Below, piece after piece: positions 2,395-32,100 of a stretch of DNA of 64,000 nucleotides. Position 1 is the first letter of the stretch. Each line of letters starts with the position of its first letter. The translations under genes and the position numbers were made by a program. This DNA is from an uncultured delta proteobacterium (GTDB taxonomy: Bacteria > Desulfobacterota > Syntrophorhabdia > Syntrophorhabdales > WCHB1-27): contig CAVYJH010000008.1 in assembly GCA_963768735.1 (NCBI GenBank), positions 26,314-90,313 of the forward strand, written 5' to 3'. A model generated the notes under the pieces. That model ran no database searches. It had not been told where the DNA came from and saw only the letters and a list, made by a program, of their open reading frames with translations.

Positions 2395-4098
2395 TTAAAC
2401 ACTAGCGCCGGCAACGGCCCTCACTGATACAACGGTCTTGAGGTAATCCGTCTTCTGTTTCTCGATATCCGAGGGGTCAGCCGGAAAAAGCCCAATCTTC
2501 ACCGGGACGGCGTAGAGTTCCGGTTGGCGCATGGCGGGAACGCTCGATTGGAAGAGGAACCTCAGGCCGAAATAGCCGTCCTTGATGTCGTAGGCGAGAT
2601 ATCCATGATCCTTGAGTATCCCGGAGAACTCGATCAGGACTGCCTTGTTGTCGGTCTCGAACGATTGACGGACGAGTCGGTAGTCGAGGACCTTCTTTTC
2701 GAAGGCGAGGAGCTTGAGAACCTCACGGACGTAATTCGGTGTGCAATAGACGATGCCCCCGAAGGACATCGCCCCCCAGACGGCTCTCCGGTTTTTGACG
2801 ACGAGTTCATTGATGTGCGGCTGGATGATCTCCGCAAGCCTTGGCAGGTCCAGCCATTCGGTCATGGGCTTTATAGCGAAGGCAGGATCGGCCGATGTGA
2901 TCTCATATTCTCTGGCTCTTGCATCGGCGCCCATGATGATCCTCGCAACGGTGTCGTCTTTGGAAAGAGTGTGGTGGAGGCTGACTGCGTCGGCGACGAT
3001 TTCTGTGAAGACTTCGTTCCCAAGGGGCGAAAGCAACTCTTTCAGCTTGACCTCCCCTGCGGATTCGTGGGTGTGTTTCCTGGGGGTCGAAGACTGCCAC
3101 AACGAGGATACTTTCCCTATGTCGTGGCCAAGGGCGGTGATGATGATGGCGGGGAGCAGGAAGTCGTGCCGCTGCCGCAGTTCCTCACGTGCGATATCGA
3201 GGGCGGCCTCCAGGACATTGTAGGTGTGGTCATAGAGGGAGACACCCCGGAGGATTTCAAGGAAGTGCTCATGCTCCCGCAGATTTTTATACTCGCAATC
3301 GGAGGTTTTGCCTGACCAGCCGACTACCGAGGGGGCGTCGCCGCCCTCATAGAGGAGTCGGAGCAGCTCATCGAGGATCTCCATCGAGGCGACCTCAGCG
3401 AGGAGGGGCCGGTAGGGGGCGATGAGGGCCTCGTAGTCCTCTATCCTCCTTTTGGAGTCCAGCGAGGGAGGCTCATCGAGGAGGCCGGGGAGGGGTGGTT
3501 GAACAACCCGCCTGGTATTGACTATCCGTGCTGTTTCAGCGAGGGGAACACTCAGCGAGTAAGTGCCTTCAGCGAGGAGTTTTTCTGTCGCGGAAGAACG
3601 GCACCTCGGAGTGGCTTCACCTGAATTTGCCGTCTTCTTCCTCTGTCGGAGCCGTATCCTCTCCTTGACTTTCCGTGCGAGCCTCTTCAGAAAGGGAAGC
3701 ATCGTCCCCGGCATGCGGAAGTTGTTCTTAGCCATGTGCGCGACCCTGCCTGGCGTCAGGGTCATATCGTTCTCGAATACCCCCTCCATCCAACCCTCGA
3801 TCTCCGCTGTATTGACGCGGGCGAACCCTTTCGTCACGTAGACGGCCGAGGCTTTGACGCATATGCCCTTGAGGAACTTTTGATTTCCCCTTTCAACCGC
3901 CATCCATGTAACGAAGAGCGTCCTTTTCAGCTTTATGTCCTTTTCGGAGTTCATCCATGCGGTAAATATGGCAACCTTGCGGTTAAGGTCCGCTCCCTCC
4001 ATCCAGCGAAGGAACAGCAGTATGCTCTCCTCCAGGGAAAGACCCATGAGGTCGCCCAGTATTCTTTCGATGATGCCCATTCCTCTGCTTGTAGTCAT
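2395..4098 (-). CDS. large HD-domain protein of unknown function
   Basis: 567 aa with a strong RBS (GGAAGGAGAAG). HD phosphohydrolase signature: LYDHTYNV ... ITALGHDIGK ... SLHHTL ... GADARA. I do not recognise the N-terminal ~300 aa. Confidence 0.7.
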   Translation of the reverse strand: MTTSRGMGIIERILGDLMGLSLEESILLFLRWMEGADLNRKVAIFTAWMNSEKDIKLKRTLFVTWMAVERGNQKFLKGICVKASAVYVTKGFARVNTAEIEGWMEGVFENDMTLTPGRVAHMAKNNFRMPGTMLPFLKRLARKVKERIRLRQRKKTANSGEATPRCRSSATEKLLAEGTYSLSVPLAETARIVNTRRVVQPPLPGLLDEPPSLDSKRRIEDYEALIAPYRPLLAEVASMEILDELLRLLYEGGDAPSVVGWSGKTSDCEYKNLREHEHFLEILRGVSLYDHTYNVLEAALDIAREELRQRHDFLLPAIIITALGHDIGKVSSLWQSSTPRKHTHESAGEVKLKELLSPLGNEVFTEIVADAVSLHHTLSKDDTVARIIMGADARAREYEITSADPAFAIKPMTEWLDLPRLAEIIQPHINELVVKNRRAVWGAMSFGGIVYCTPNYVREVLKLLAFEKKVLDYRLVRQSFETDNKAVLIEFSGILKDHGYLAYDIKDGYFGLRFLFQSSVPAMRQPELYAVPVKIGLFPADPSDIEKQKTDYLKTVVSVRAVAGASV

Positions 4099-19450: not shown

Positions 19451-19894
19451 ATGAGATTCGTGTGTGATGTGATGCTGGGGAAACTGGCGAAATACCTGCG
19501 TATCCTGGGGTTCGACACGGTCTGTGCCCAAACGCCCGCCGCCCTAGAGCACTACCGCGCGCATGATGGCGACCGTATCCTGCTCACGCGGCGAAAAGCG
19601 CCTTCCGGCTTCGCGAAGACGGTTCGCATCGACTCGGAGCGCGCATCAGAGCAACTCCTGGAGATTAAGGCGCTGCTGAAGCCCTTTATCTCAGACGGCG
19701 CGCTATTCGGCAGGTGCATAAAATGCAACGTGGAATTGGCCGAGGCGGACAAGGCGGACATCGAGCCCCTCGTCCCCGAGTTTGTCTATCACCATTACAG
19801 CCGCTTCAAGATGTGCCCCTCCTGCAGGAGGGTCTACTGGGAGGGGTCGCACACGACGGGCATGACCGGCCTCCTCAAGGAGGTGCTTTCCTGA
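19451..19894 (+). CDS. Mut7-C RNase domain (DUF82) protein
   Basis: 147 aa: [23 protein letters not shown] ... C-terminal zinc ribbon CIKCN ... CPSC. Confidence 0.75.
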
Positions 19895-19914
19895 TCCCGT
19901 TCCCTTTCAAAGAA

Positions 19915-20619
19915 GTGGTCGAACGGCTTAAAGAGTTCTATAAGTCCGACGTCCCCGTTGTCACGAGGATCGCCGCCAACAGCAGACGAGCGAAGCGAGA
20001 TGAGGGGGGAGACTCCGCGAGCTTGCTCGTGGAGGGGGCGCTGAGCCCCAATAAGCGACCCGACCCCTTTCTCGTGCTCATCGGCTGCCTTCTCAGCCTG
20101 AGAACAAAAGACGAGACAACGGACAAGGCCATGGAGCGCCTCATGGAAAGGGCCCGCACGCCGGAGGAATTGCTGTCGATCCCCACGGAGGAGGTCGAAA
20201 AGATCATCTATCCGGTAGGATTTTACAAAGTGAAGTCGCGCCTTATCAAAGAGATCAGCCGCACCGTCATCGAAAAATACCACAACACCGTGCCCGATAC
20301 CCTGGACGAGCTGCTCACCATCAAGGGCATAGGCCGAAAAACGGCCAATATAGTGATCACCGAGGGCTTCGGGTTGGCAGGTGTAGCAGTCGACACCCAC
20401 GTCCACCGCATCTCTAACAGGCTGGGCGCGGTGAAGACAAAGACGCCCGATGAAACGGAGATGGCACTGCGGCGGATCCTGCCGCAGGAGTACTGGAGGG
20501 AGTATAATCCGCTGCTGGTGACGCATGGGAGAAGGACGTGCAATCCCATATCGCCGTGGTGCAGCAAGTGCCCGGTCTATGACCTCTGCGGGCGGATGGG
20601 CGTCACGCGTTCGCGCTAG
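19915..20619 (+). CDS. nth: endonuclease III (carries an in-frame repeat-element insertion near the N-terminus)
   Basis: HhH-GPD core [15 protein letters not shown] ... VDTHVHR and Fe-S cluster loop [20 protein letters not shown] 19915 is the first canonical start after the upstream stop. Confidence 0.85.
19986..20051 (-). repeat. copy of the repeat element, inverted, inside the nth reading frame
   Basis: CGAGCGAAGCGAGATGAGGGGGG ... hairpin CGAGCTTGCTCG ... GGAGGGGGCGCTGAGCCCCA. This is the reverse complement of the 11063 family. Confidence 0.75.
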
Positions 20620-20949
20620 CCGGGAAGGCCAACGGCCTGGAGAAATCGCGATCTGCGGCGCCCTGCTGCGGTCGTGAGGCTACGCCGTACGGCACAGTAC
20701 GGCTCCGCTCAACGATCCTCACAGGTCATCCACACCTCATCGATTCCTCCATGCCGCCGTCCACCCGATCCGGGTTCTATCAGCCCGAAAGTAGCTGATA
20801 CTCCCCGAAAGTAAAAAGGCACAAGCCCTATGAGCAAAATTCCCCCCATGCCGTTACTCCCGCAAGTTGTTATAGGTTCTTCTCAGGTTCGTAAATCCTT
20901 GATTCCCATATGTCAATGGCAGACCCCCTCTTTCGTCCCTATTGGCATT

Positions 20950-21987
20950 CTAAATCCAAAACTGATGAAGGATTTCCCATTTTTTAATTCCGAGGTCAGG
21001 CATACGATCGAATGTTGGGAACCTACCATCAAATACATCCGCGTTATAATTGACGGCTTCGTTAATCTCATTACGAGTCTTCTCAGAAAGTCCATACCAC
21101 CATGAAGGCTTGACAGCCAAATTTTCCAAACGAGTTGTGCACATCCACACCAATCTGCATGTAAGATTATTTGTTGTTACGAGATCTTCAATAAAACGAG
21201 TAGGTGCTTTGGCCTCATCATCGAAAAATGAAAGTAAAACAAAGATACCCGAATTATCAGGAATGACTGACACAAATAGATTTTGCATATTACAGTCAAA
21301 ATCAGTGTAATTCTGAAGCGACTCTCCATTAGAGAGATAATCCGGGAAAAAAGAACCAGCACATGCAATCACTGGAGAACTATTAGAATGGATGACGTAG
21401 GACTGCAGTCTCCCGTAATCGCCGTGAGTGATATATGCTTCAAATTTATTCTTGAAGGCTATTGCGTCTGACATTCCTTGGTACATTGAGGCTTTTGCTA
21501 TCTCAAGTTCTGGAGATAGCCTATATTCCTTGTCGCTTGAGAGACCTTGAAGTTCTGCTATTTGATTTGCATCAAGAAAGGCGTCTATCTGACAACCCTT
21601 AAAATAATACTCCCGGCATGCGCACCTATAAGCCTGCATAAAAAGTTGCTCTGGGGTTGCCATAAATGGTGACTGGTCTAAAGATTTAAATAGATTCTGG
21701 TCATGCTGATTGCAGAATCCTGGGAAAGCCAGTGCTTCATTAATACTGGTACTTTTGAAATGTAATAGCTTATTCTCCAATGTTGAGAAAAGGTTCATAT
21801 TACGAACCAACACGTGATTATTCTCAGCGATCAAACAAAGACTCTTGGTCTTAGATATTGTGTGCGACCTGCCTATTTCTCCGCTACACTCTCCCACTGC
21901 AAGACAAATTGGTCTTCTATGAAGGTTCCGCAACCGCTTCATATGCTTTTCTACTAATTTTGCTTTTTCTGCGCTGAAGGGTTTCAT
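20950..21987 (-). CDS. hypothetical 345-aa protein (Cys/His motifs; no family recognised)
   Basis: Long ORF in a visibly AT-rich segment. Motifs: CLAVGECSGEIGRSHTISK and GFCNQHDQNLF. No TM segment or signal peptide. Confidence 0.7.
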   Translation of the reverse strand: MKPFSAEKAKLVEKHMKRLRNLHRRPICLAVGECSGEIGRSHTISKTKSLCLIAENNHVLVRNMNLFSTLENKLLHFKSTSINEALAFPGFCNQHDQNLFKSLDQSPFMATPEQLFMQAYRCACREYYFKGCQIDAFLDANQIAELQGLSSDKEYRLSPELEIAKASMYQGMSDAIAFKNKFEAYITHGDYGRLQSYVIHSNSSPVIACAGSFFPDYLSNGESLQNYTDFDCNMQNLFVSVIPDNSGIFVLLSFFDDEAKAPTRFIEDLVTTNNLTCRLVWMCTTRLENLAVKPSWWYGLSEKTRNEINEAVNYNADVFDGRFPTFDRMPDLGIKKWEILHQFWI

Positions 21988-22106
21988 GTGGTTCCGTTTA
22001 CTGCACCCGCAATAGACAAGGGTGGCGGGACCGTAGTTTCGTTTATTCCGTTATTCGACCAGACGTGTGATGCCCATCCAGCAGCAGACCCCGCCGCATC
22101 TGACGG

Positions 22107-22520
22107 TTAGCGTTCAATCACGCCTTCCAGAGCCCTCATGAAGATATGGGGCAAGTCTCTATAAATCATTCTCAACTCCTTGTTGTAACCAAAGATCTCT
22201 CGCATAACTGGATGCTCGAATGAAAATTCGACCATTCGGTTGAACTCCTGAATAGCTTGCTCCTTTTCTGCCCTAGATTTACGGCTCTTCAAGATATCCA
22301 AGACCTCTCGGCCTGCTTCGTAAATCCAGGGGAAGTCATCTTTCAGCAGACTCAGGGTAATCTGGATGCCAACAAAAGTCTTCTCAAACACCGGAGACAA
22401 CTGCATGAGTTCCTCAACAAACATCGGGTTCCATTTGCGAAAAGATCGACGCAGTTGAGTTTCTTGATATCTCTCTAAACGATTGCGTAATTCAGCCAGA
22501 TTGTCCTTCACTTCTGCCAA
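22107..22520 (-). CDS. hypothetical 137-aa helical protein (same frame as 22578..22814)
   Basis: The ORF begins at TTG. It is in frame with the upstream ORF and separated from it only by one TAA. Confidence 0.5.
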   Translation of the reverse strand: MAEVKDNLAELRNRLERYQETQLRRSFRKWNPMFVEELMQLSPVFEKTFVGIQITLSLLKDDFPWIYEAGREVLDILKSRKSRAEKEQAIQEFNRMVEFSFEHPVMREIFGYNKELRMIYRDLPHIFMRALEGVIER

Positions 22521-22577
22521 TGAGTCGTGAAGATTCCCTTCCGGATTTCTCAGCAGTTTTTGGTTAATTCTTGTAAG

Positions 22578-22814
22578 TTACAGTATTTCTTCCAGTATCG
22601 CATCCCTCTTCTTATCATCGGCTCCGTTGGCCTTTTTTGTAGATGGCTCACCGACGGTCTTAACTTTCGCCAGGTCCTCTTCCAGCCTGGGATACCATGC
22701 GTCGAAAGCCCTATCCAAGGGCAACGACGACAGGGACGTAGTTCCGTTCATTCCGTTATTCCACAGAACGGCAAAGGGACAGGCCGCTTTTTTCACTTTG
22801 CCGTTCTTCTCCAT
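22578..22814 (-). CDS. hypothetical 78-aa protein (possible N-terminal part of a 235-codon gene)
   Basis: ATG-initiated ORF 74 nt downstream of the methyltransferase gene. It ends at a TAA that is in frame with 22107..22520. Confidence 0.45.
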   Translation of the reverse strand: MEKNGKVKKAACPFAVLWNNGMNGTTSLSSLPLDRAFDAWYPRLEEDLAKVKTVGEPSTKKANGADDKKRDAILEEIL

Positions 22815-22888
22815 TGGCCGTAAACCGTCTCGTCCGTCCTCCTGAGTCTTATAGTATTTACAATATGAATGAAATTACAAGGAAAATG

Positions 22889-25012
22889 TTATGGCGCCGA
22901 GAGGAATTCCGATTTTTCCGCCGGTGTCTGCTCCAGCCCACGTTTCACCGATTCAACGATTAGATCGATATCCTGTGCCGAACTGAGTGTCGTGAGCAGT
23001 TGGCCGAATAATACTATCTTTTTGTCATTGAGGGAGAGCGAAAAGCCGGAAGCCCGGAGCCTGCGAATTTTATCTAGGGCGGTCTCCGTGGCTCTTTCTC
23101 TGGAAACGGGACGGCGGTCATGGAGTTTATCGGCCTTCTTGCAGACGATGATGATATCGAGCTGGATCGGCTCTTTTGCCTGCGCCTTGGGCGTCGCAAC
23201 GGACATTTCGGATTTGACCGGGTGAGAGTTTACGACTACGAAGCCGGCGTTGAGAATCGCGTTGGACAGCGACTTCCACCCGTCATCCCGCGAATGGTGG
23301 TACGAAAAGACCAATAACCCATCGTCTTTCAGAATCCTGTTGCATTCGCGGAAGACATTTTCCAGCTTGTGCGAAAAACTTTCCGGATCGGCATCTTGCA
23401 CCTCGGCAGGATTGCGGGTTGTTCCAGGGGATGAGCCGTTAAGCCCTGTTTGCTGCCAGGCATAGAAGAAGTCGGCCAATTCGGAATAATGCACGTTGTC
23501 AAAGAAAGGCGGGTCGGTTACCACCAGATCGATGTTGCCATCGGATAATTCGGAAACAGACGAGTCTCCTTGCGAGAGATAGATGCCACGATTTACCGTA
23601 GATCCATTCGAAGGCCATTCGGATTCAAGCCTACCGCTGAACGCCAAGGAAGAGATGACGCCTTTTCCGGTCTTTGACCCGTTGACCTCGGTGGGATTCA
23701 TGCGGTACTCGATTGCCTTGATGAGTCGTTGACGGACCAACGTCGAAAAGGAGCCGGAACTCTTCGGCGTGCCCCAAACATTGGCTTCTATAGGCAGACG
23801 CTCTGGTTTGAGGATATGATGGGAGAACATGTGGCGCACCGCGCCGGTACCTTCTCCTTTATATGACACGAACATGTTATTGAATTCGAGGAGGCCGGAG
23901 AACAAGACAAGGAGCATGTTCCGTGTCGATTCATCTCCGATTTCTCTTATTGCCGACTGGAGCCAGCCAAGGGCGAGCAACTGACGATCGTTGAAAAATG
24001 CCTTCCACTCGCAAAAACCATAGTTTATGGCTTGCCGGGTATTATATCCGTCCTCCAGCTTGAGGGACGGCAGCGAGACCTTCTTCTCTTCAATCTCGCT
24101 CTTCAATAATTGAGCGCATCTTCCATATTCGTCGATGTCTTCTGCCGTAGCTTTCAAATATTCTTTGGTCCCTTCCCCTGTGAGTATGAGTTTTCCATAC
24201 AGGCGAAATGCAGGTGTTTTTCCGCTTTCTGAAATCGCTTTCACTGCAGAAAACACATTTTCGCAGTGCCGGCATGTCGCCTTTGGGCCTTTGACAGTCC
24301 CCGCTTCCGGTAAGAAACTATGACCGCAGGCGTTACATTTGGCTTTCTCCTGAGCGGAAATGCCTTGAAAAATGTCCCCGCAATGAGGGCAAAGGATCTG
24401 AACTTCGGGGTTCCGTTGGGGGTAGGCGTTCCGGGCAATGATCCAGGACGGAAACAGATCGGTCTTTTCGTGGCAGTCCGGGCAATCAACCTGCATCACC
24501 CAAAAATAATAAAGCACGTCGGAATCATTGCCCCTTGAGTCCCTGGAACGGTAGAGTACCCTGATTTTCCGGCCGACTCCTTCGGAAAGCTCGGTCAGGG
24601 CATTTTGAAGCGACTTCTGATTTAACGGCCCTAAAACCGCCTTTACCGATCCAACGGCAACGGGATTTATATCCCGGCCGAACGCGGTAAAACCAAGTTT
24701 GTGTGCTTCACCGATGGTGGTGCCGGAGCCCATGAAAGGGTCAAAGACAGAAACGCCCGAAAAGGCATGTTTCTTATAAAATAGTTGCGTCAGGTCCTCG
24801 TCCGGACGCAGCACACAGCCGAGCAGGATGCCGCGAAAGACCGAGCCCAGCCTATTGGCCCACCACTTATGGATGTGGTAGATGGGCCGATGGACCTCCT
24901 TGCGCCAGCTCTCCCTTTCGGCAAGCAGGGAAATGAACTCAAAAGGGAATTCATCCGTTTCGATTAGGTGATAGTTACTCGGATGTTTCTCCACTTTCGC
25001 TCTCTTTATCAT
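22889..25012 (-). CDS. DNA methyltransferase with DUF1156-like N-terminus and Zn-ribbons (COG1743-type)
   Basis: 707 aa. N-terminus: RKEVHRPIYHIHKWWANRL. SAM motif FDPFMGSGTT, four CxxC pairs (CPDC/CPHC/CNAC/CRHC) and catalytic motif VVTDPPFFDNVHY. Confidence 0.85.
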   Translation of the reverse strand: MIKRAKVEKHPSNYHLIETDEFPFEFISLLAERESWRKEVHRPIYHIHKWWANRLGSVFRGILLGCVLRPDEDLTQLFYKKHAFSGVSVFDPFMGSGTTIGEAHKLGFTAFGRDINPVAVGSVKAVLGPLNQKSLQNALTELSEGVGRKIRVLYRSRDSRGNDSDVLYYFWVMQVDCPDCHEKTDLFPSWIIARNAYPQRNPEVQILCPHCGDIFQGISAQEKAKCNACGHSFLPEAGTVKGPKATCRHCENVFSAVKAISESGKTPAFRLYGKLILTGEGTKEYLKATAEDIDEYGRCAQLLKSEIEEKKVSLPSLKLEDGYNTRQAINYGFCEWKAFFNDRQLLALGWLQSAIREIGDESTRNMLLVLFSGLLEFNNMFVSYKGEGTGAVRHMFSHHILKPERLPIEANVWGTPKSSGSFSTLVRQRLIKAIEYRMNPTEVNGSKTGKGVISSLAFSGRLESEWPSNGSTVNRGIYLSQGDSSVSELSDGNIDLVVTDPPFFDNVHYSELADFFYAWQQTGLNGSSPGTTRNPAEVQDADPESFSHKLENVFRECNRILKDDGLLVFSYHHSRDDGWKSLSNAILNAGFVVVNSHPVKSEMSVATPKAQAKEPIQLDIIIVCKKADKLHDRRPVSRERATETALDKIRRLRASGFSLSLNDKKIVLFGQLLTTLSSAQDIDLIVESVKRGLEQTPAEKSEFLSAP

Positions 25013-25787
25013 CTATGACGATTTCTTGTATCTGGCGCATGGCAACAGGGGAAGCCGGGCTTCCAGGCAATCTCCAGGCGCGAAAAAGATGCTCTCGCCC
25101 TGCATTCGGGTTAGGTAGCTTGTCAGGATTCAACTCGTTATTCTTTAGATCAAAGGAATATCCGACAGTCAGCTCTGTCGCTTCCTTTCTTAAGAGTCTG
25201 CCGACTTCAATAAAAGCGGCCTTTGTCTCCATTTCGGCGGGGAGAATGAGTGTCATTTGATGCGCCAAGCCTTCGGCAATTCTGAAAGGGGTAGGGACAA
25301 CATACATTTTTCTGTCACGTATCAGGATGTCGCCGTAACTCCCGAATCCCTTGACGCTCTTATTTTTGTGGACATATTCGTGATCCGCGTTCAAGAAGTC
25401 GCCGTGACAAATGACGAGATCGAGGACCGGGTAGCTGTTGCCGTCAGGATTTTTGGGGTATCTTCCGAATACATAATAGATCGTTCTCCCGTTATGATAG
25501 CCGGCCGGGACCTGGCTGTTGCTGTCAAAACTGGCATCCCGGCCGGGATAGGCAAGCCCCTTCACTTCATATCCCTCGGTCGCCGCAACCATCCGGAAGT
25601 CCGGATAGGTGTTTCTTCCGCCGATCTCGTAATTGAAAGCCCTTTCCTGAAGGCGTTTCTCAAACCAGTTTTGAAAATGGAATTCTTTGTCGGTGCTGCT
25701 GACGCGTTCGATCAGGACGCCTTTCCGAATCGCAAGGACACACCGCTCGAAGATTTTTGAGATGGTGTGCTTTGGGGAGTTACTCAT
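24975..25787 (-). CDS. putative type II restriction endonuclease (PD-(D/E)xK)
   Basis: 270 aa. YPDFRMVAATEGYEVKG fits PD...ExK. It overlaps the methyltransferase gene by 38 nt, suggesting an operon. Confidence 0.6.
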   Translation of the reverse strand: MSNSPKHTISKIFERCVLAIRKGVLIERVSSTDKEFHFQNWFEKRLQERAFNYEIGGRNTYPDFRMVAATEGYEVKGLAYPGRDASFDSNSQVPAGYHNGRTIYYVFGRYPKNPDGNSYPVLDLVICHGDFLNADHEYVHKNKSVKGFGSYGDILIRDRKMYVVPTPFRIAEGLAHQMTLILPAEMETKAAFIEVGRLLRKEATELTVGYSFDLKNNELNPDKLPNPNAGREHLFRAWRLPGSPASPVAMRQIQEIVIDDKESESGETSE

Positions 25788-26019
25788 ACACTATTTAATG
25801 AAATTATTCATGGGATAATCAAGAGAATTAGCGTCCTATCCATGGACTATGTGGAAACCATGGGTAGACGGGAAGGATGCCCTTTACATTTCTTATCTTG
25901 CGCGCCCCTTTCAAGTGCGAATGCCCTTCCCTCTTCGCCTGTCCATGGGCGATGGGGCCGTGAAAGCTGTTCCTTCGCACATGGTTTCGACAATTCGCCA
26001 CATACGCTTGGTCGGGCAA

Positions 26020-26250
26020 TCATGGCTGCAACTCGCACTCCACAGTCTCTGGACTGAAATCCTGTTCATGCGGCCACATAATGCCTCCAAAAGCGGGCCT
26101 GACAGACCGGAAATATGCCGGTTCCTTTAATTCTTTGAAGACGCCCTTGTCGATATACGGAGAGACATCAAAGACACCTTTCCTGCCGTTTGATAGTTCG
26201 ACTTTGAGTTTATAATCACCCATGGGTTCTACAGATATCACTTTTACCAT
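26020..26250 (-). CDS. DUF2442 domain protein
   Basis: 76 aa: VISVEPMGDYKLKVELSNGRKGVFDVSPYI ... WPHEQDFSPE. Confidence 0.7.
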   Translation of the reverse strand: MVKVISVEPMGDYKLKVELSNGRKGVFDVSPYIDKGVFKELKEPAYFRSVRPAFGGIMWPHEQDFSPETVECELQP

Positions 26251-26282
26251 TGATCCACCTCATTTAAGACCGCTTGACCTTC

Positions 26283-26540
26283 CTAAGGGTTCAGTAAAAC
26301 ATCGTGGGTGCCGACTTTGCGCAAAAGATATACGTCCTCTACGGTTTGGAAAGTGAACCGGTATGACAAGCTGATCCTGCCTTCCCAAATGCCCCTGGGG
26401 TCTTTCATTTTTTTTAGGTTGAGGGAAGGATGCTTTGGATTGGATAATAAAAGCCCCAATTGCTTATCCGTTAATTTCTGGATGTCTTGGGGCAATTTCC
26501 GGTAATCCCGGACAAAGGTCTTGGTAAAGGCGAGCTTCAT
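26283..26540 (-). CDS. RelE/ParE-family toxin
   Basis: 85 aa: FTKTFVRDYRKLPQDIQ ... GIWEGRISLSYRFTFQTVEDVYLLRKVGTHD. 4-nt overlap with the upstream antitoxin gene. Confidence 0.75.
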   Translation of the reverse strand: MKLAFTKTFVRDYRKLPQDIQKLTDKQLGLLLSNPKHPSLNLKKMKDPRGIWEGRISLSYRFTFQTVEDVYLLRKVGTHDVLLNP

Positions 26541-26821
26541 ACCTTGGTGGTTTTGAGGGCTTTCAAGGCGTCCTTGATATTGTCAAAAGGGCCGATCATG
26601 TCGCCTTCGGCAATATCCCGGTCGGCGTCTCTCTCCCCACCCTGCCATTCTTTGGTATGGAAGTAGGCTTCCTCCTGACGGATCATCTTTACCGGCTTCA
26701 GCACCAATTCGTTGTTGTGCTCCTCGATTTCCAAATAGTCGCCCTCGGCAATCCTAAATTTCTTCCTAATTTCATGAGGAATGGTTATTTGCGAATGTTT
26801 TTTGACTTTGATTAGAGGCAT
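26537..26821 (-). CDS. AbrB/MazE/SpoVT-type antitoxin
   Basis: MPLIKVKKHSQITIPHEIRKKFRIAEGDYLEIEEHNNELVLKPV. ATG 26821 has RBS AAGGAGATAAGG; the ORF-track start is 26842. Confidence 0.75.
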   Translation of the reverse strand: MPLIKVKKHSQITIPHEIRKKFRIAEGDYLEIEEHNNELVLKPVKMIRQEEAYFHTKEWQGGERDADRDIAEGDMIGPFDNIKDALKALKTTKV

Positions 26822-26983
26822 GTTCCTTATCTCCTTGTACAAATCGTAAATACTGTTAAATTATGAAATTATTAATTTAAGAATACCACATATAGAAAAA
26901 AAGTCAAGGCAAACCGCCGGGCAAGGGGGGCAAGCTCTTCCCGATGCTTAAGCGGTAATGTTTGCACTGGTATTAAACATTAT

Positions 26984-27006
26984 ACTGTGCTATGATATAG
27001 CACAGT
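26984..27006. promoter_or_regulatory. perfect 10-bp palindrome, likely vapBC operator
   Basis: ACTGTGCTAT-GAT-ATAGCACAGT, 22 nt upstream of the vapB start. It overlaps a -10-like TATGATAT. Confidence 0.5.
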
Positions 27007-27027
27007 AATGACAGAGAGGACAACATT

Positions 27028-27225
27028 ATGAGAAGCACAGTCACTCTTGAAAAGGCCATGCTTGACGAACTCCTGGCTGAAACCCACGCGAAAAGCAAAA
27101 CAACTGCGGTAAAGGAGGCTATCTCGGACTACCTGAGACGCCGCCGCATGGAGAAGATAAAGTCCATGAAAGGCAAGCTGGAATTCGACCTTACCGCTGA
27201 GGAGTTGCGCCACTATGAGCGGTAA
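27028..27225 (+). CDS. vapB: VapB-type antitoxin (DUF2191-like)
   Basis: 65 aa: MRSTVTLEKAMLDELLAETHAKSKTTAVKEAISDYL. Overlaps the downstream PIN gene. Confidence 0.75.
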   Translation: MRSTVTLEKAMLDELLAETHAKSKTTAVKEAISDYLRRRRMEKIKSMKGKLEFDLTAEELRHYER

Positions 27226-27610
27226 TCGTGTGCTGATCGATACGTCCGTGTGGATTGCCTACTTCAGAAATACCTCGGTCGAGGTCGGCGGGCGCGTCGA
27301 GGCCATGATGTCCGAGGCTGAGATATGCGTCCCGAAGATTGTTCTCGCCGAGTTGCTGCAAGGTTCAAAGTCGGAACGCGAGATCGGGACGATAGAAAGT
27401 TTTTTTGGCGCCTTCACTATTGTCGATCAGGGAGAGCGCTCGTGGCTCAGTGCCGGAAGGCTGGCTTACCAGCTTAAGAGGAAAGGAAAAACGGTGAATC
27501 TCGCGGACTGCTACATAGCTATTATCGCTCAGGAACAGGGATGCAGGGTTTTTACCCTTGACGAACACTTTAAGGAGATTCAGAAAGTGATCGATATCGC
27601 GTTGGTCTAG
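27215..27610 (+). CDS. vapC: PIN-domain toxin VapC
   Basis: 131 aa: VLIDTSVWIAYF ... LAELLQG ... DCYIAIIAQEQGCRVFTLDEHF. Confidence 0.85.
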   Translation: MSGNRVLIDTSVWIAYFRNTSVEVGGRVEAMMSEAEICVPKIVLAELLQGSKSEREIGTIESFFGAFTIVDQGERSWLSAGRLAYQLKRKGKTVNLADCYIAIIAQEQGCRVFTLDEHFKEIQKVIDIALV

Positions 27611-27768
27611 TGGAGTGCTTTCGTGAATCAAGGAAAATGTCGTAGTATTCCCGCCGCTCCCAACTGGTTCTTCGTCTACAGGAAGATACCCCTCGCCCTC
27701 CTTACCGGTAAACCGCCACGTTGACAACATCGGGCATCTGATATATTACAATAGCGTAGAGGACGCAC

Positions 27769-27978
27769 ATGGCAAGACAATTTACGGTGGTTATCGAACG
27801 AGACGAAGAAGGCTATTATGTGGCAGACGTTCCGGAATTAAAGGGATGTCACACACAGGCGCGTTCTCTGGATGATCTCCTTGAGAGGGTCAAGGAGTCG
27901 ATTCAGCTTTGTCTGGAAGTGTGCGGAGAAGACCTCCCGGCCATGGAGTTTATCGGGATTCAAAAAGTAGCGGTATGA
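27769..27978 (+). CDS. hicB: HicB-family antitoxin
   Basis: 69 aa: FTVVIERDEEGYYVADVPELKGCHTQARSLDDLLERVKESI. Confidence 0.8.
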   Translation: MARQFTVVIERDEEGYYVADVPELKGCHTQARSLDDLLERVKESIQLCLEVCGEDLPAMEFIGIQKVAV

Positions 27979-28244
27979 GCACGCTTCCGGCCCTCACCGG
28001 TACCACTCTCATCTCCGTCCTTAAGAAGATCGGCTTTGCCATCGATAGGCAGAGAGGAAGCCATGTCTTTCTGACACACCCCGATGGAAGAGCCACAATT
28101 ATCCCAGCCCATGAAGAAACCATAGGACCTGGTCTTCTTTCCATAATTCTGCGAGATGTTGGTCTCTCAACAGAGGAATTTCTCGACCTGAATGAAAAAT
28201 GGATATCCTTCCCCTATCCGGCGTGTCTGTTTTATTTGTACTGA
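27975..28244 (+). CDS. hicA: HicA-family mRNA interferase toxin
   Basis: ATG 27975 overlaps the hicB stop (ATGA). LISVLKKIGFAIDRQRGSHVFLTHPDGRATIIPAH. The ORF-track start 27909 is rejected. Confidence 0.8.
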   Translation: MSTLPALTGTTLISVLKKIGFAIDRQRGSHVFLTHPDGRATIIPAHEETIGPGLLSIILRDVGLSTEEFLDLNEKWISFPYPACLFYLY

Positions 28245-28290
28245 CGCGCAAATGTGCTACTATTCCTGCAAGACGATGTGAGGAGGAGGG

Positions 28291-29064
28291 ATGCACAAAT
28301 ACTGTCTATTCTTTTTGATTCTCCTGATAATGGCTCCGGGTGCGGCACATGCGGCCGGCGGCCGGGACGTTCTCTTCCAGGTATCGACCATCGACGCCCT
28401 CTTGACCGGTATTTACGACGGTGAAACCACCCTTGAATCTCTCAGGGAAAAGGGGGACTTCGGTCTTGGCACTTTTAACAACTTGGACGGTGAGATGCTT
28501 TTGCTCGATGGGCAGTTTTACCGCATCACGGCGGCGGGCACAGTCGAGCGCCCGGGTCCGGGGACGAAAACGCCCTTTGCCGCCGTCACCTTTTTCGATG
28601 CCGACCGGACGGTCCCTCTTGAGAAAGGCCTCGATCTTCAGCAATTTGTCGCGAAGACCGACAAACTCTTGCCGACGCCCAACGTCTTTTATGCCATCAA
28701 GATCACGGGGACATTCGAAATGGTCAGGGCAAGAAGCGTGGCGCGCCAGGCGAAGCCTTACAGACCTCTGGACGAAGTGGTGAAAAGCCAGGGGCTTTTC
28801 ACCTTAGGCAAAGCAGAAGGCACTATTGTAGGGTTTCGCTGTCCGCCCTATGTCAAGGGTGTCAGTGTTCCGGGCTACCATCTCCATTTCATCACCACTG
28901 ACCGGAAAGCAGGTGGCCACGTGCTCGATTTCAGGGTCGACAAAGCGGTATTGGAGGTTGACGACACGAGCGAGTTCGACCTGATTCTCCCATCCGATAG
29001 GGCCTTCTATGATGCGGACCTTACGCCTGACAGAGGACAGGCGCTCAAGGCAGTAGAAAAATGA
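28291..29064 (+). CDS. alpha-acetolactate decarboxylase homologue with N-terminal signal peptide
   Basis: LFQVSTIDALLTGIYDGETTLESLREKGDFGLGTFNNLDGEMLLLDGQFY. The N-terminus MHKYCLFFLILLIMAPGAAHA looks like a Sec signal. Confidence 0.85.
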   Translation: MHKYCLFFLILLIMAPGAAHAAGGRDVLFQVSTIDALLTGIYDGETTLESLREKGDFGLGTFNNLDGEMLLLDGQFYRITAAGTVERPGPGTKTPFAAVTFFDADRTVPLEKGLDLQQFVAKTDKLLPTPNVFYAIKITGTFEMVRARSVARQAKPYRPLDEVVKSQGLFTLGKAEGTIVGFRCPPYVKGVSVPGYHLHFITTDRKAGGHVLDFRVDKAVLEVDDTSEFDLILPSDRAFYDADLTPDRGQALKAVEK

Positions 29065-29101: not shown

Positions 29102-32100
29102 TTACCAACTGAACGAGAAACCCCCGTTCACTGTCGTCTGCGTACCGTCGTAAGCAAAACCGGTTTTCATCCGTATGCGGTCGCTGATTTGGGCCGCTAA
29201 CCCTACCGCAAGAGCCCTTTCGCCCATATAGGTACCTCCCCCTATGCCCATGGAGAACCTCTTTCCGGGACCGGGATCGGGAATGCCGGCGAGGGCCGCG
29301 GCCGACGCAACACCGCTATAGGCCTTCACCAACTGCCGGTAGTTTACCGCATCGTAAGGATTCGTGCCGTCGGCAATCCCCGTGACGCGTGCCGGACCCT
29401 GGGTCGCATCGTTGCGAAAAGTGGCTCCGTTGTCGTTCAGGATCAGCGAGGTAGACCTTGTGCCGCCGCTCAGCGTTGCGGCCTGGGTATTCACCGTGAG
29501 CCCATGGGATTCCTGGGTAGTGGGGTTGAGCACGGTAACGGAAACATTGTCAGGCTGGACGTTCAATTGACTGTGGTTTGCGGCGGTAGATCCACTTCCG
29601 TTGGCGACGATGTTCACCGTGTTGCTGGCACCATTCACGGTGACCCCGCTGTTATTTACCACGATTCCCGATGACGAAGTCGGGTTGGCACTGGTCAAAT
29701 AGCCATTCACCGCGAGGTCTCCGTCCACGTACATACGGCCGGTGACGATAACGCCGTATGGGACGGTCGTCGTCGCACCGTTCTTGTTCGTGTAGTATTG
29801 ATCGTTGCTCACGGTGATGCTGTTCTGCACGGGGTGATCTGTATAAGAAACGCTGCTGTAGCCCTGGCTGGCTAACGTAATACTGCTCGCGCTCATAGCA
29901 AGCGTGGGACCGCTGTTGACATTTAAGGTACTATTGATCGTGGTGGGACCGTTCAAGGTGGTTGCGCCCGTGACTTGAAGCCCGCCGTTGAGGTTGGTCG
30001 GGCCCGTAACCGCGAAGGTGCCTCCTTTCACAGTGACGCCTCCGTTCAAGGTGGTTGCGCCCGCCACAGCGAACGTGCCCCCCACCGTGGCGTTATTGGC
30101 AATACTTGCTGAATTGAGGGTGGCAAGACCCGAGGTGCTCAGCGTTGAAAGGCTCGTGTTGCCGGTAACGGCAAGGTTACCCCCCACCGTAGCATCATTA
30201 ATGATGCTCGCAGAATTCAGCGTCGCAAGACCGGAGGTAGTTAAGGTCGAGAGGCTCGTGTTGCCGGTGACGGCAAGGGTGCCGCCTACTGTTTCGTTAT
30301 TCGTGATACTTGCCGAATTGAGGGTGGCAAGACCCGAAGTGCTCAGGGTCGAGAGGCTGGTGTTGCCGGTGACGGCAAGGGTGCCGCCTACTGTTTCGTT
30401 GTTGGTAATACTTGCCGAATTGAGGGTGGCAAGACCCGAAGTGCTCAGGGTCGAGAGGCTTGTGTTGCCGGTGACGGCAAGGGTGCCGCTGGTGGAGGTG
30501 TTGCCCGTGGCGTTGTCCACGGTAAAAACGTTGGAGGTTCCATTGTTGACTGCAAGAGCTCCTCCCTGTATGGTAGCACCACCGTTCAGATTGGTAGCGC
30601 CTGTGACGGCCAGGGTGCCCCCCAGGTTTGTCGCCCCCGTCACACCCAGTGTGCCCCCTACCGTGGCGCTATTGGTAATACTTGCCGAATTGAGGGTGGC
30701 AAGGCCTGAGGTGCTCAGTGTCGAGAGGCTGGTGTTGCCGGTGACACCCAGTGTGCCCCCTACCGTGGCATTGTTGGTAACGCTTACGGAATTTAACGTC
30801 GCAAGACCTGAGGTGCTCAGGGTAGTAAGGCTTGTGTTGCCGGTGACGGCAAGGGTGCCGCTGGTGGAGGTGTTGCCCGTGGCGTTGTCCACGGTAAAAA
30901 CGTTGGAGGTTCCATTGTTGACTGCAAGAGCTCCTCCCTGTATGGTAGCACCACCGTTCAGATTGGTAGCGCCTGTGACGGCCAGGGTGCCCCCCAAGTT
31001 TGTCGCCCCAGTCACACCCAGCGTCCCGCCTACCGTGGCGTTATTCGTAATGCCTGCGGAATTCAACGTCGCAAGGCCTGAGGTACTTAGGGTCGAGAGA
31101 TTCGTGTTGCCGGTGACGGCAAGCGTGCCGCTGGTAGAGGTGTTGCCCGTGGCGTTGTCCACGGTAAATACGTTGTAAACTCCGTTGTTGACTGCGAGGG
31201 CCCCGCCTTTCACGGTAGCACCGCCGTTCAGATTGGCGGCACCCGTCACCCCAAGTGTGCCCCCCACCGTGGCGTTATTGGTGATACTTGCAGAGTTCAG
31301 GGTGGCAAGACCCGAGGTGCTCACGGTCGAGAGATTCGTATTGCCGGTCACACCCAGTGTGCCCCCTACCGTTTCGTTATTCGTAATGCCTGCGGAATTC
31401 AACGTCGCAAGGCCCGAGGTGCTCAGGGTAGTAAGAGTGGTGTTGCCGGTAACACCCAAGGTGCCCCCCAGGTTTGTCGCCCCGGTCACCCCCAGTGTGC
31501 CGCCTACTGTGGCGTTGTTGGTAACGCTGGCAGAGTTGAGCGTGGCAAGGCCAGAGGTACTCAGGGTCGAGAGGCTTGTGTTACCTGTGACACCCAGTGT
31601 GCCGCCCACCGTGGCATTATTCGTAATGCCTGCGGAATTCAGGGTGGCAAGACCAGAGGTACTCAGGGTCGAGAGGCTTGTGTTGCCGGTGACGGCAAGG
31701 GTGCCGCTGGTGGAGGTGTTGCCGGTGGCGTTGTCCACGGTAAATACGTTGGAAACTCCGTTGTTGACTGCAAGAGCCCCGCCTTTCACGGTAGCACCGC
31801 CGTTCAGATTAGCAGCCCCGGTCACGCCCAGTGTGCCGCCTACCGTGGCGTTATTGGTGATACTTGCGGAATTCAGGGTAGCAAGGCCAGAGGTACTCAG
31901 TGTCGAGAGGCTGGTGTTGCCGGTAACCCCAAGTGTGCCGCCTACCGTGGCATTGTTGGTAACGCTGGCAGAGTTGAGCGTGGCAAGACCTGAGGTGCTT
32001 AGGGTAGTGAGGCTGGTGTTGCCGGTAACGCCCAAGTGTGCCGCCTACCGTGGCGTTATTGGTGATACTTGCGGAGTTCAGGGTAGCAAGGCCAGAGGTA

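Follow-up and report, generated by a model that had tools for sequence, protein, structure and literature searches.

The question raised by this locus is whether a short AT-shifted stretch at the end of a restriction-modification (R-M) operon encodes one undescribed defence system, as a preliminary description had proposed, or several genes that only happen to be neighbours. The stretch lies at positions 20830-22860 of a 64,000-nucleotide (nt) piece of contig CAVYJH010000008.1 from an uncultured delta proteobacterium; this whole piece is called the window below, and all coordinates refer to it unless another contig is named. It carries a gene for a 345-amino-acid (aa) protein and, upstream of it on the same strand, a reading frame of 78 plus 137 aa. 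The locus resolves into a SEC-C-less variant of a known single-gene antiphage system, Rugutis, a recently killed TIR gene and a separate, probable R-M pair.

The compositional shift was reproduced by measurement. The guanine-plus-cytosine (GC) content of 20830-22860 is 0.439 vs. a whole-window mean of 0.554 (standard deviation 0.032, windows of 2031 nt), and 0.24% of such windows reach a value this low. The 345-aa gene is the compositional extreme, with a GC of 0.402 and a GC at third codon positions (GC3) of 0.38, compared with a GC3 of 0.70-0.74 for nth, ligA and the malic-enzyme gene. The stretch belongs to a larger low-GC island at 20700..28250 (GC 0.483 vs. 0.558 and 0.567 in the flanks), whose borders are nth (19714-20619) and an alpha-acetolactate decarboxylase gene (28291-29064). 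As described before, the open reading frames (ORFs) are co-oriented: every credible ORF in 20.9-25.8 kb is carried by the minus strand, and 74 nt separate the methylase stop from the ATG at 22814. The absence of mobility genes also held, since no integrase or transposase was found in the 20.7-28.25 kb block. No tRNA gene is present in the island, the sole tRNA of the window being far away, and an Rfam search of 20400-23100 gave no match. The low-GC stretch is horizontally acquired DNA that forms the downstream end of a small defence island.

To place the 345-aa gene (20950..21987, minus strand), homologues were collected and compared. There are 41 close homologues, equal to it in length; they all start at a common Met, none has a Pfam domain, and the protein itself gave no usable match to Pfam, NCBIfam, PHROGs or PADLOC. 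With a profile of the close homologues, the number of representative clusters matched is 4133 at E ≤ 1e-3 and falls to 2915 when the threshold is set to E ≤ 1e-10. In tblastn searches, relatives on plasmids were annotated as 'SEC-C domain-containing protein', and among them was a 359-aa protein of lactococcal dairy plasmids. Plasmid pUCCL633A has exactly one such gene, WP_137016746.1, which is Rugutis. This protein (pUCCL633_059) is a 359-aa SEC-C protein of strain UCCL633, known as a single-gene antiphage system (Nucleic Acids Res 2024, PMC11381338) and treated again in a later paper (PNAS 2025, PMC12184496). BLASTP aligned the 345-aa protein to Rugutis with 25% identity over 321 columns (E 1e-22), hhalign gave 99.4% (E 3.4e-21), and the close-family profile matched Rugutis residues 38-333 with 121 bits (E 3.9e-30 in a search space of 1.84e9 sequences). 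At the level of sequence, these comparisons establish the 345-aa protein as a distant homologue of Rugutis, with homology that is firm over the whole core. The earlier statement that the products of this stretch could not be placed in any family was therefore wrong for both of them, as one belongs to the Rugutis family and the other matches the PADLOC model 'TIR-TM'.

The two proteins are homologous across the entire core domain of ~300 residues and share the motifs C...C, (S/A)H(T/S)I, GFCxxHD, YR...E and EN...PSxW. Both are encoded by solitary genes that are cargo of mobile DNA, and both have confidently predicted structures with no fold match in the PDB (for Rugutis, see PMC11381338). They differ in that the 345-aa protein does not have the N-terminal SEC-C motif (345 vs. 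359 aa) and in that the host of the window is a high-GC environmental bacterium, not Lactococcus. SEC-C (PF02810) is a motif of ~20-25 residues; Pfam gave no match to it in the 345-aa protein, it is absent in 34/34 aligned close homologues, and it is present in 10/29 diverse family members. In four other members (P0177, P0198, P0255 and P0265; 445-456 aa) an unrelated N-terminal domain of ~100 residues replaces SEC-C. The family alignments suggest that N-terminal modules are exchangeable on a constant core. PADLOC matches of distant relatives (E2, PDC-S12) were discarded because the SEC-C motif alone was covered, and the RefSeq names of the E. coli, Salmonella, Vibrio and Lactococcus relatives ('YecA family protein' or 'SEC-C domain-containing protein') rest only on these ~20 residues, which are missing in the 345-aa protein. 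The core domain was unrelated to YecA in every test run, and the name 'YecA family protein' for the E. coli prophage relatives is probably misleading.

The preliminary description had pointed to conserved-looking Cys/His motifs in the 345-aa protein, and these proved to be the invariant core of the family. The two motifs, C28-x5-C34...S-H42-T-x-S and G90-F-C92-x2-H95-D96-x3-F100, do not vary among 34 close homologues, and nearly all of their positions stay the same in 29 distant ones. Across these 29 members, the invariant residues are C28, H42, F88, G90, F91, C92, H95, D96, F100, R121 and W296, with C34, Q114, E126, K130, P215, Q225 and N289 nearly so; the conserved core of the gene in the window thus includes C28, C34, H42, G90-F-C92, H95-D96 and R121. 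From this conservation we infer a predicted metal site formed by C28, C34, C92 and H95, with H42 and D96 as candidate catalytic residues, while nuclease chemistry for this protein is a guess. The AlphaFold2 model is confident, with a predicted local distance difference test (pLDDT) score of 90.9 and a predicted template modelling score (pTM) of 0.90. Foldseek found no match to it in PDB or BFVD at E ≤ 1e-3, and a sequence profile of the family found none among PDB sequences. The proposed check by structure prediction and Foldseek yielded a good model without a known fold.

The 345-aa gene is intact and selectively maintained. The ratio of nonsynonymous to synonymous substitution rates (dN/dS) against its homologue in contig L024 is 0.125, which indicates purifying selection. 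The DNA common to the window and this 88%-identical locus extends from 17 nt before the ATG to 6 nt past the stop.

Genomic contexts of the family were then compared. Close homologues of the 345-aa gene stand in unrelated surroundings, which include an SNF2 gene with a giant methylase gene, TacAT, DUF433/PIN, ParE, a NERD-kinase with an Eco57I-type gene, VanY, and metabolic genes. In contigs L001 (10250-17035), L002 and L003, a 68%-identical homologue lies upstream, by ~1.2 kb, of genes for an SNF2-family helicase and a 1568-aa methylase-like protein; these two genes may be a separate defence module. At 20 diverse loci, the only family common to more than 4 loci is that of the 345-aa gene itself. 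The lack of a conserved neighbour, together with the variable contexts, indicates that a gene of this type acts as a solitary one. In 92/5426 complete E. coli genomes, P2-like prophages carry a relative between gpD and ogr, annotated as 'YecA family protein' (for example, 6001-7140 of contig L084, from E. coli SCU-105). A Salmonella plasmid relative shares its island with an integrase and with AAA ATPase and DUF4435 genes, a PARIS-type pair, and a Vibrio relative adjoins Abi, AAA ATPase and helicase genes. Relatives were also seen on dairy plasmids and in 5 IMG/VR viral contigs.

The other reading frame of the stretch had been located correctly by the preliminary description; its reading as a '235-codon product' did not stand. 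It is a single frame broken by a TAA codon, with its first ~27 codons outside the gene proper, and it is the remnant of a TIR gene. This pseudogene (22107..22735, minus strand) comprises the C-terminal ~200 codons of a TIR_2 family of ~340 aa, with the N-terminal TIR domain deleted, and the in-frame TAA (22578..22580, minus strand) divides it into the two ORFs at a position where homologues have GAA (Glu). Of the 293 positions in PADLOC model PDLC03016 ('TIR-TM'), the two ORFs match 126-185 and 212-284, in colinear order, and full-length homologues match this model over its whole length, at 1e-115 to 1e-120. The joined frame has 86 database homologues, mostly of 335-350 aa and most with PF13676 (TIR_2), and the best of these are 70-75% identical to it over the C-terminal ~210 residues only. 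In agreement with this, tblastn of six full-length members against the window covered residues ~126-337 only, and no TIR domain was found by tblastn in the whole 64-kb window, including the R-M and toxin-antitoxin (TA) block. Homologues read ILEEIL-E-LTRINQ at the stop position, which means that a GAA codon was changed to TAA.

The closest intact gene, in contig L025, is homologous to the remnant at the DNA level over 22717-22115, with 80% identity. The dN/dS of the remnant against this gene is as low as 0.094, which points to a recent inactivation. At the start of the '78-aa ORF', ~27 codons are non-TIR and run through a repeat element of ~35 nt. When compared with PADLOC 'TIR-TM' proteins, the remnant has kept the family-specific C-terminal domain (70-75% over ~212 residues), but not the TIR domain (residues 1-~125), and its frame, broken by the TAA, is not in working order. 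These results show that the 78+137-aa frame corresponds to two-thirds, on the 3′ side, of a solitary defence gene of the TIR-domain type; it is now a pseudogene, and the missing TIR domain and the nonsense codon make the remnant non-functional. Selenocysteine insertion or read-through at the internal stop was considered and rejected, the codon being TAA and the gene having lost its TIR domain in any case. The intact TIR family stands alone in 4 distinct contexts, without cyclase or reverse transcriptase. In L025, the closest intact homologue (P0042) comes after an Arc/FitA-like gene and a nucleotidyltransferase gene, and the 302-aa ORF that follows it (2893-3801) matches HEPN_AbiU2 weakly (E 1.5e-4, short of the gathering score); such neighbours indicate that the intact gene, too, lies in a defence/TA neighbourhood.

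Do the TIR-like frame and the 345-aa gene nevertheless form one undescribed multi-gene system, appended to the R-M operon and working with it? The genes are indeed co-oriented and close (gaps of 74 nt and 119 nt), they have a common low GC, and their surroundings are those of a defence island. Over all fetched DNA, however, the TIR family was found at 0/70 Rugutis-like loci and a Rugutis-like gene at 0/9 TIR loci, so the two genes, whose co-occurrence had been suggested as a check, are never together elsewhere, and no partner or neighbour is conserved. The DNA common with other contigs stops within ~20 nt of each gene, which implies that the TIR and 345-aa genes move separately. Moreover, the TIR gene has lost its TIR domain and acquired a nonsense codon, and homologues of the R-M pair on plasmids are followed by different genes. 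We therefore regard a single system as scarcely credible. What stands of the preliminary proposal is the defence-type, acquired cargo; the single system fails on the co-occurrence counts, and the 345-aa protein is not undescribed, Rugutis having been reported in 2024. The remnant could still be thought to function by itself, as a 137-aa or read-through protein with the C-terminal helical domain that serves as a regulator or decoy. Its dN/dS is low, the 137-aa ORF has a TTG start, and four database proteins (P0046, P0067, P0097 and P0099; 164-221 aa) match the C-terminal region only. Yet a low ratio is expected after recent inactivation, and short entries of this kind are mostly on 1-3 kb contigs and may be fragments. 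As the nonsense codon is inside the conserved 'ILEEILELTRINQ' block and the upstream part runs through the repeat element, we find a functional remnant very unlikely.

Two further alternatives concern the 345-aa protein itself. It might not be an immune protein here at all, but a selfish addiction or toxin-like gene or a mobile-element enzyme, for instance a DNA-processing one, with the Rugutis effect being a high-copy one that is not general. Rugutis was indeed tested from high-copy pNZ44 and could not be brought into, or stably kept in, two of the host strains; several close homologues lie among ordinary metabolic genes, and the family is frequent on plasmids and prophages. The protection by Rugutis is, however, phage-specific and its escape mutants are gene-specific, the family recurs in prophage cargo sites and beside PARIS, Abi and R-M genes, and nothing like an antitoxin accompanies the solitary gene. 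We judge a non-immune role to be unlikely, though less so than a working TIR remnant. The other alternative is a mode of action, in which the Cys/His core would be a divergent HNH/His-Me-finger nuclease with a CCCH zinc site that kills by DNA cleavage. The order C-x5-C...(strand)-H...(strand)...C-x2-H-D at a helix start resembles zinc-bearing HNH motifs, and the preliminary description arrived at the same idea of a metal-dependent or nuclease-like fold. Against this, 29 N-terminal segments searched against Pfam gave no HNH or other nuclease family at E ≤ 10, and neither the PDB sequence searches nor Foldseek in PDB or BFVD returned a match. The nuclease is doubtful on these results, if slightly less so than the non-immune role.

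We consider it likely that the stretch is the downstream end of an acquired defence island with two independent single-gene modules, a Rugutis-like gene and a dead TIR gene. Rugutis gave an Abi (abortive infection)-like phenotype in lysis assays. Escape mutants of phage c2 from Rugutis were all in the terminase large subunit (TerL), within its ATPase domain, and co-expression of TerL with Rugutis was toxic (PMC12184496). By homology to it, at ~25% identity, the 345-aa protein alone would be a sensor-effector of the abortive-infection type. It would be inert until a late phage function appears, which for Rugutis is the large-terminase ATPase domain, and once triggered it would be toxic to the infected cell. 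The TIR gene was beheaded first, at a copy of the dispersed repeat, and hit by the GAA>TAA nonsense mutation afterwards. A more far-reaching version holds that the SEC-C-less clade reveals the ~300-residue core to be autonomous as a module, with a fold absent from the PDB, and that its invariant C-x5-C...H and GFC-x2-HD site marks a new metal-dependent enzyme which senses the phage packaging machinery and kills the cell, in a so far unmodelled class of single-protein abortive-infection immunity that is very widespread over many phyla (>4,000 clusters); we put this forward as a tentative idea, with the chances rather against it.

Several observations weigh against this picture of an active Rugutis-like defence gene. 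The identity to Rugutis is ~25% only, and SEC-C, the sole annotated feature of Rugutis, is absent; for both reasons function, trigger and phenotype may differ. The antiphage phenotype data in the family are those of the lactococcal SEC-C protein only. Mutated TerL retained its toxicity with Rugutis (PMC12184496), which leaves a direct TerL trigger unsettled even for Rugutis. The metal-site and catalytic reading found no support in Pfam, PDB sequence profiles or Foldseek, and a promoter scan of the minus strand upstream of the 345-aa gene detected no sigma-70-like promoter. As for the neighbourhoods, 140 neighbours in 20 loci include ResIII, N6_Mtase, SIR2_2, resolvase, type I R-M, MADS and PDC models along with housekeeping genes; defence-type neighbours are mixed with housekeeping ones here, and the count is a raw tally.

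The repeat at the TIR breakpoint occurs twice in the stretch. Copy B (22733..22767, minus strand) is a non-coding element of ~35 nt, TCTGTGGAATAACGGAATGAACGGAACTACGTCCC, and coincides with the 5′ breakpoint of the TIR remnant; it marks the point at which the TIR gene lost its N-terminal part. Copy A (22027..22063, minus strand) is found in the spacer that follows the remnant and precedes the 345-aa gene, and neither of the transferred gene units includes it. The alignment of the two copies scores 45 vs. 16.7±2.3 for shuffles. The repeat core, GAATAACGGAATRAACGRAACTAC, has an exact 24-nt match in 12 metagenome contigs (L072-L083), two of which (L073 and L078) carry tandem copies with a 367-nt period, followed by runs of the CTACGTCCCCCT type. 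No homologues of the island genes were found in these 12 repeat-bearing contigs, which identifies the element as a dispersed non-coding repeat of the host lineage. It may be a REP/MITE-like element (repetitive extragenic palindrome or miniature inverted-repeat transposable element) or a recombination hotspot. A role as cassette boundary, attachment (att) site or leader of the 345-aa gene was rejected, because the repeat is absent upstream of homologues and occurs without island genes.

Upstream of the pseudogene lie the genes of the probable R-M pair. The 707-aa DNA methyltransferase (22889..25012, minus strand) is of the N6_N4_Mtase family and DUF1156-type related: it matches PF01555 at 1e-14, above the gathering score, as well as PADLOC DUF1156_MTase and many MTase_II models, and NCBIfam NF042963 at 1.6e-37, far under the cut-off of that model. 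The 270-aa protein (24975..25787, minus strand), whose gene overlaps the methylase start by 38 nt, is a putative PD-ExK endonuclease. Its residues P62-D63...E74-x-K76 are invariant in 30 homologues, and nearly all of the best 44 Foldseek matches of its model (pLDDT 74.8) are EcoRV or HincII, weakly (E 1.5e-2, probability 0.89, template modelling score ~0.3). No sequence-family match was obtained in Pfam or NCBIfam. The family comprises 4348 proteins at E ≤ 1e-3, annotated only as hypothetical, and the 120 homologues listed, from varied sources, are all at least 69% identical. On the plasmids examined, the 270-aa protein invariably comes with a ~710-aa methylase; the pair recurs on 4 plasmids with differing downstream genes, and the two genes here likely form a separate and self-contained R-M pair. 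They resemble EcoRV/HincII-type II pairs in the invariant PD...ExK and in the overlap with a large N6/N4 methylase gene. They differ from them in the weak structural similarity and missing sequence-family match of the 270-aa protein, and in the methylase, which is a 707-aa DUF1156-related protein and not a small type IIP one. The 270-aa family may be a widespread unnamed EcoRV-like R-M type.

The TA block (26020..28244) contains DUF2442, an 85-aa ORF with a MazE-type antitoxin, VapB-VapC(PIN) and HicB-HicA. The neighbourhood is thus as the preliminary description had it; its count of four modules is reduced to three clear pairs and a lone DUF2442 gene. The 85-aa ORF (26283-26540, minus strand) overlaps the end of the MazE-type antitoxin gene, in the position of a toxin gene, and had no Pfam match at E ≤ 0.01. 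Just outside the island, a 977-aa ORF (29102-32035, minus strand) is built from highly repetitive 'TLSTSGLATLNSA(S/G)ITNNATVGGTLGVTG'-type units and looks like a repeat-rich surface or adhesin-type protein.

Rugutis was known from one lactococcal protein, and the SEC-C annotation makes databases call its relatives 'YecA family'. Our results indicate that SEC-C is dispensable, as the core domain exists and is maintained without it in distant environmental bacteria. A family of >4,000 clusters without a Pfam, NCBIfam or PADLOC model is missed by current defence finders, and C28, C34, H42, F88, G90, F91, C92, H95, D96, F100 and R121 are its candidate residues for mutagenesis. The locus also illustrates that being adjacent and alike in their low GC does not turn the genes of a defence island into one system: one neighbour here is a recently killed TIR gene.

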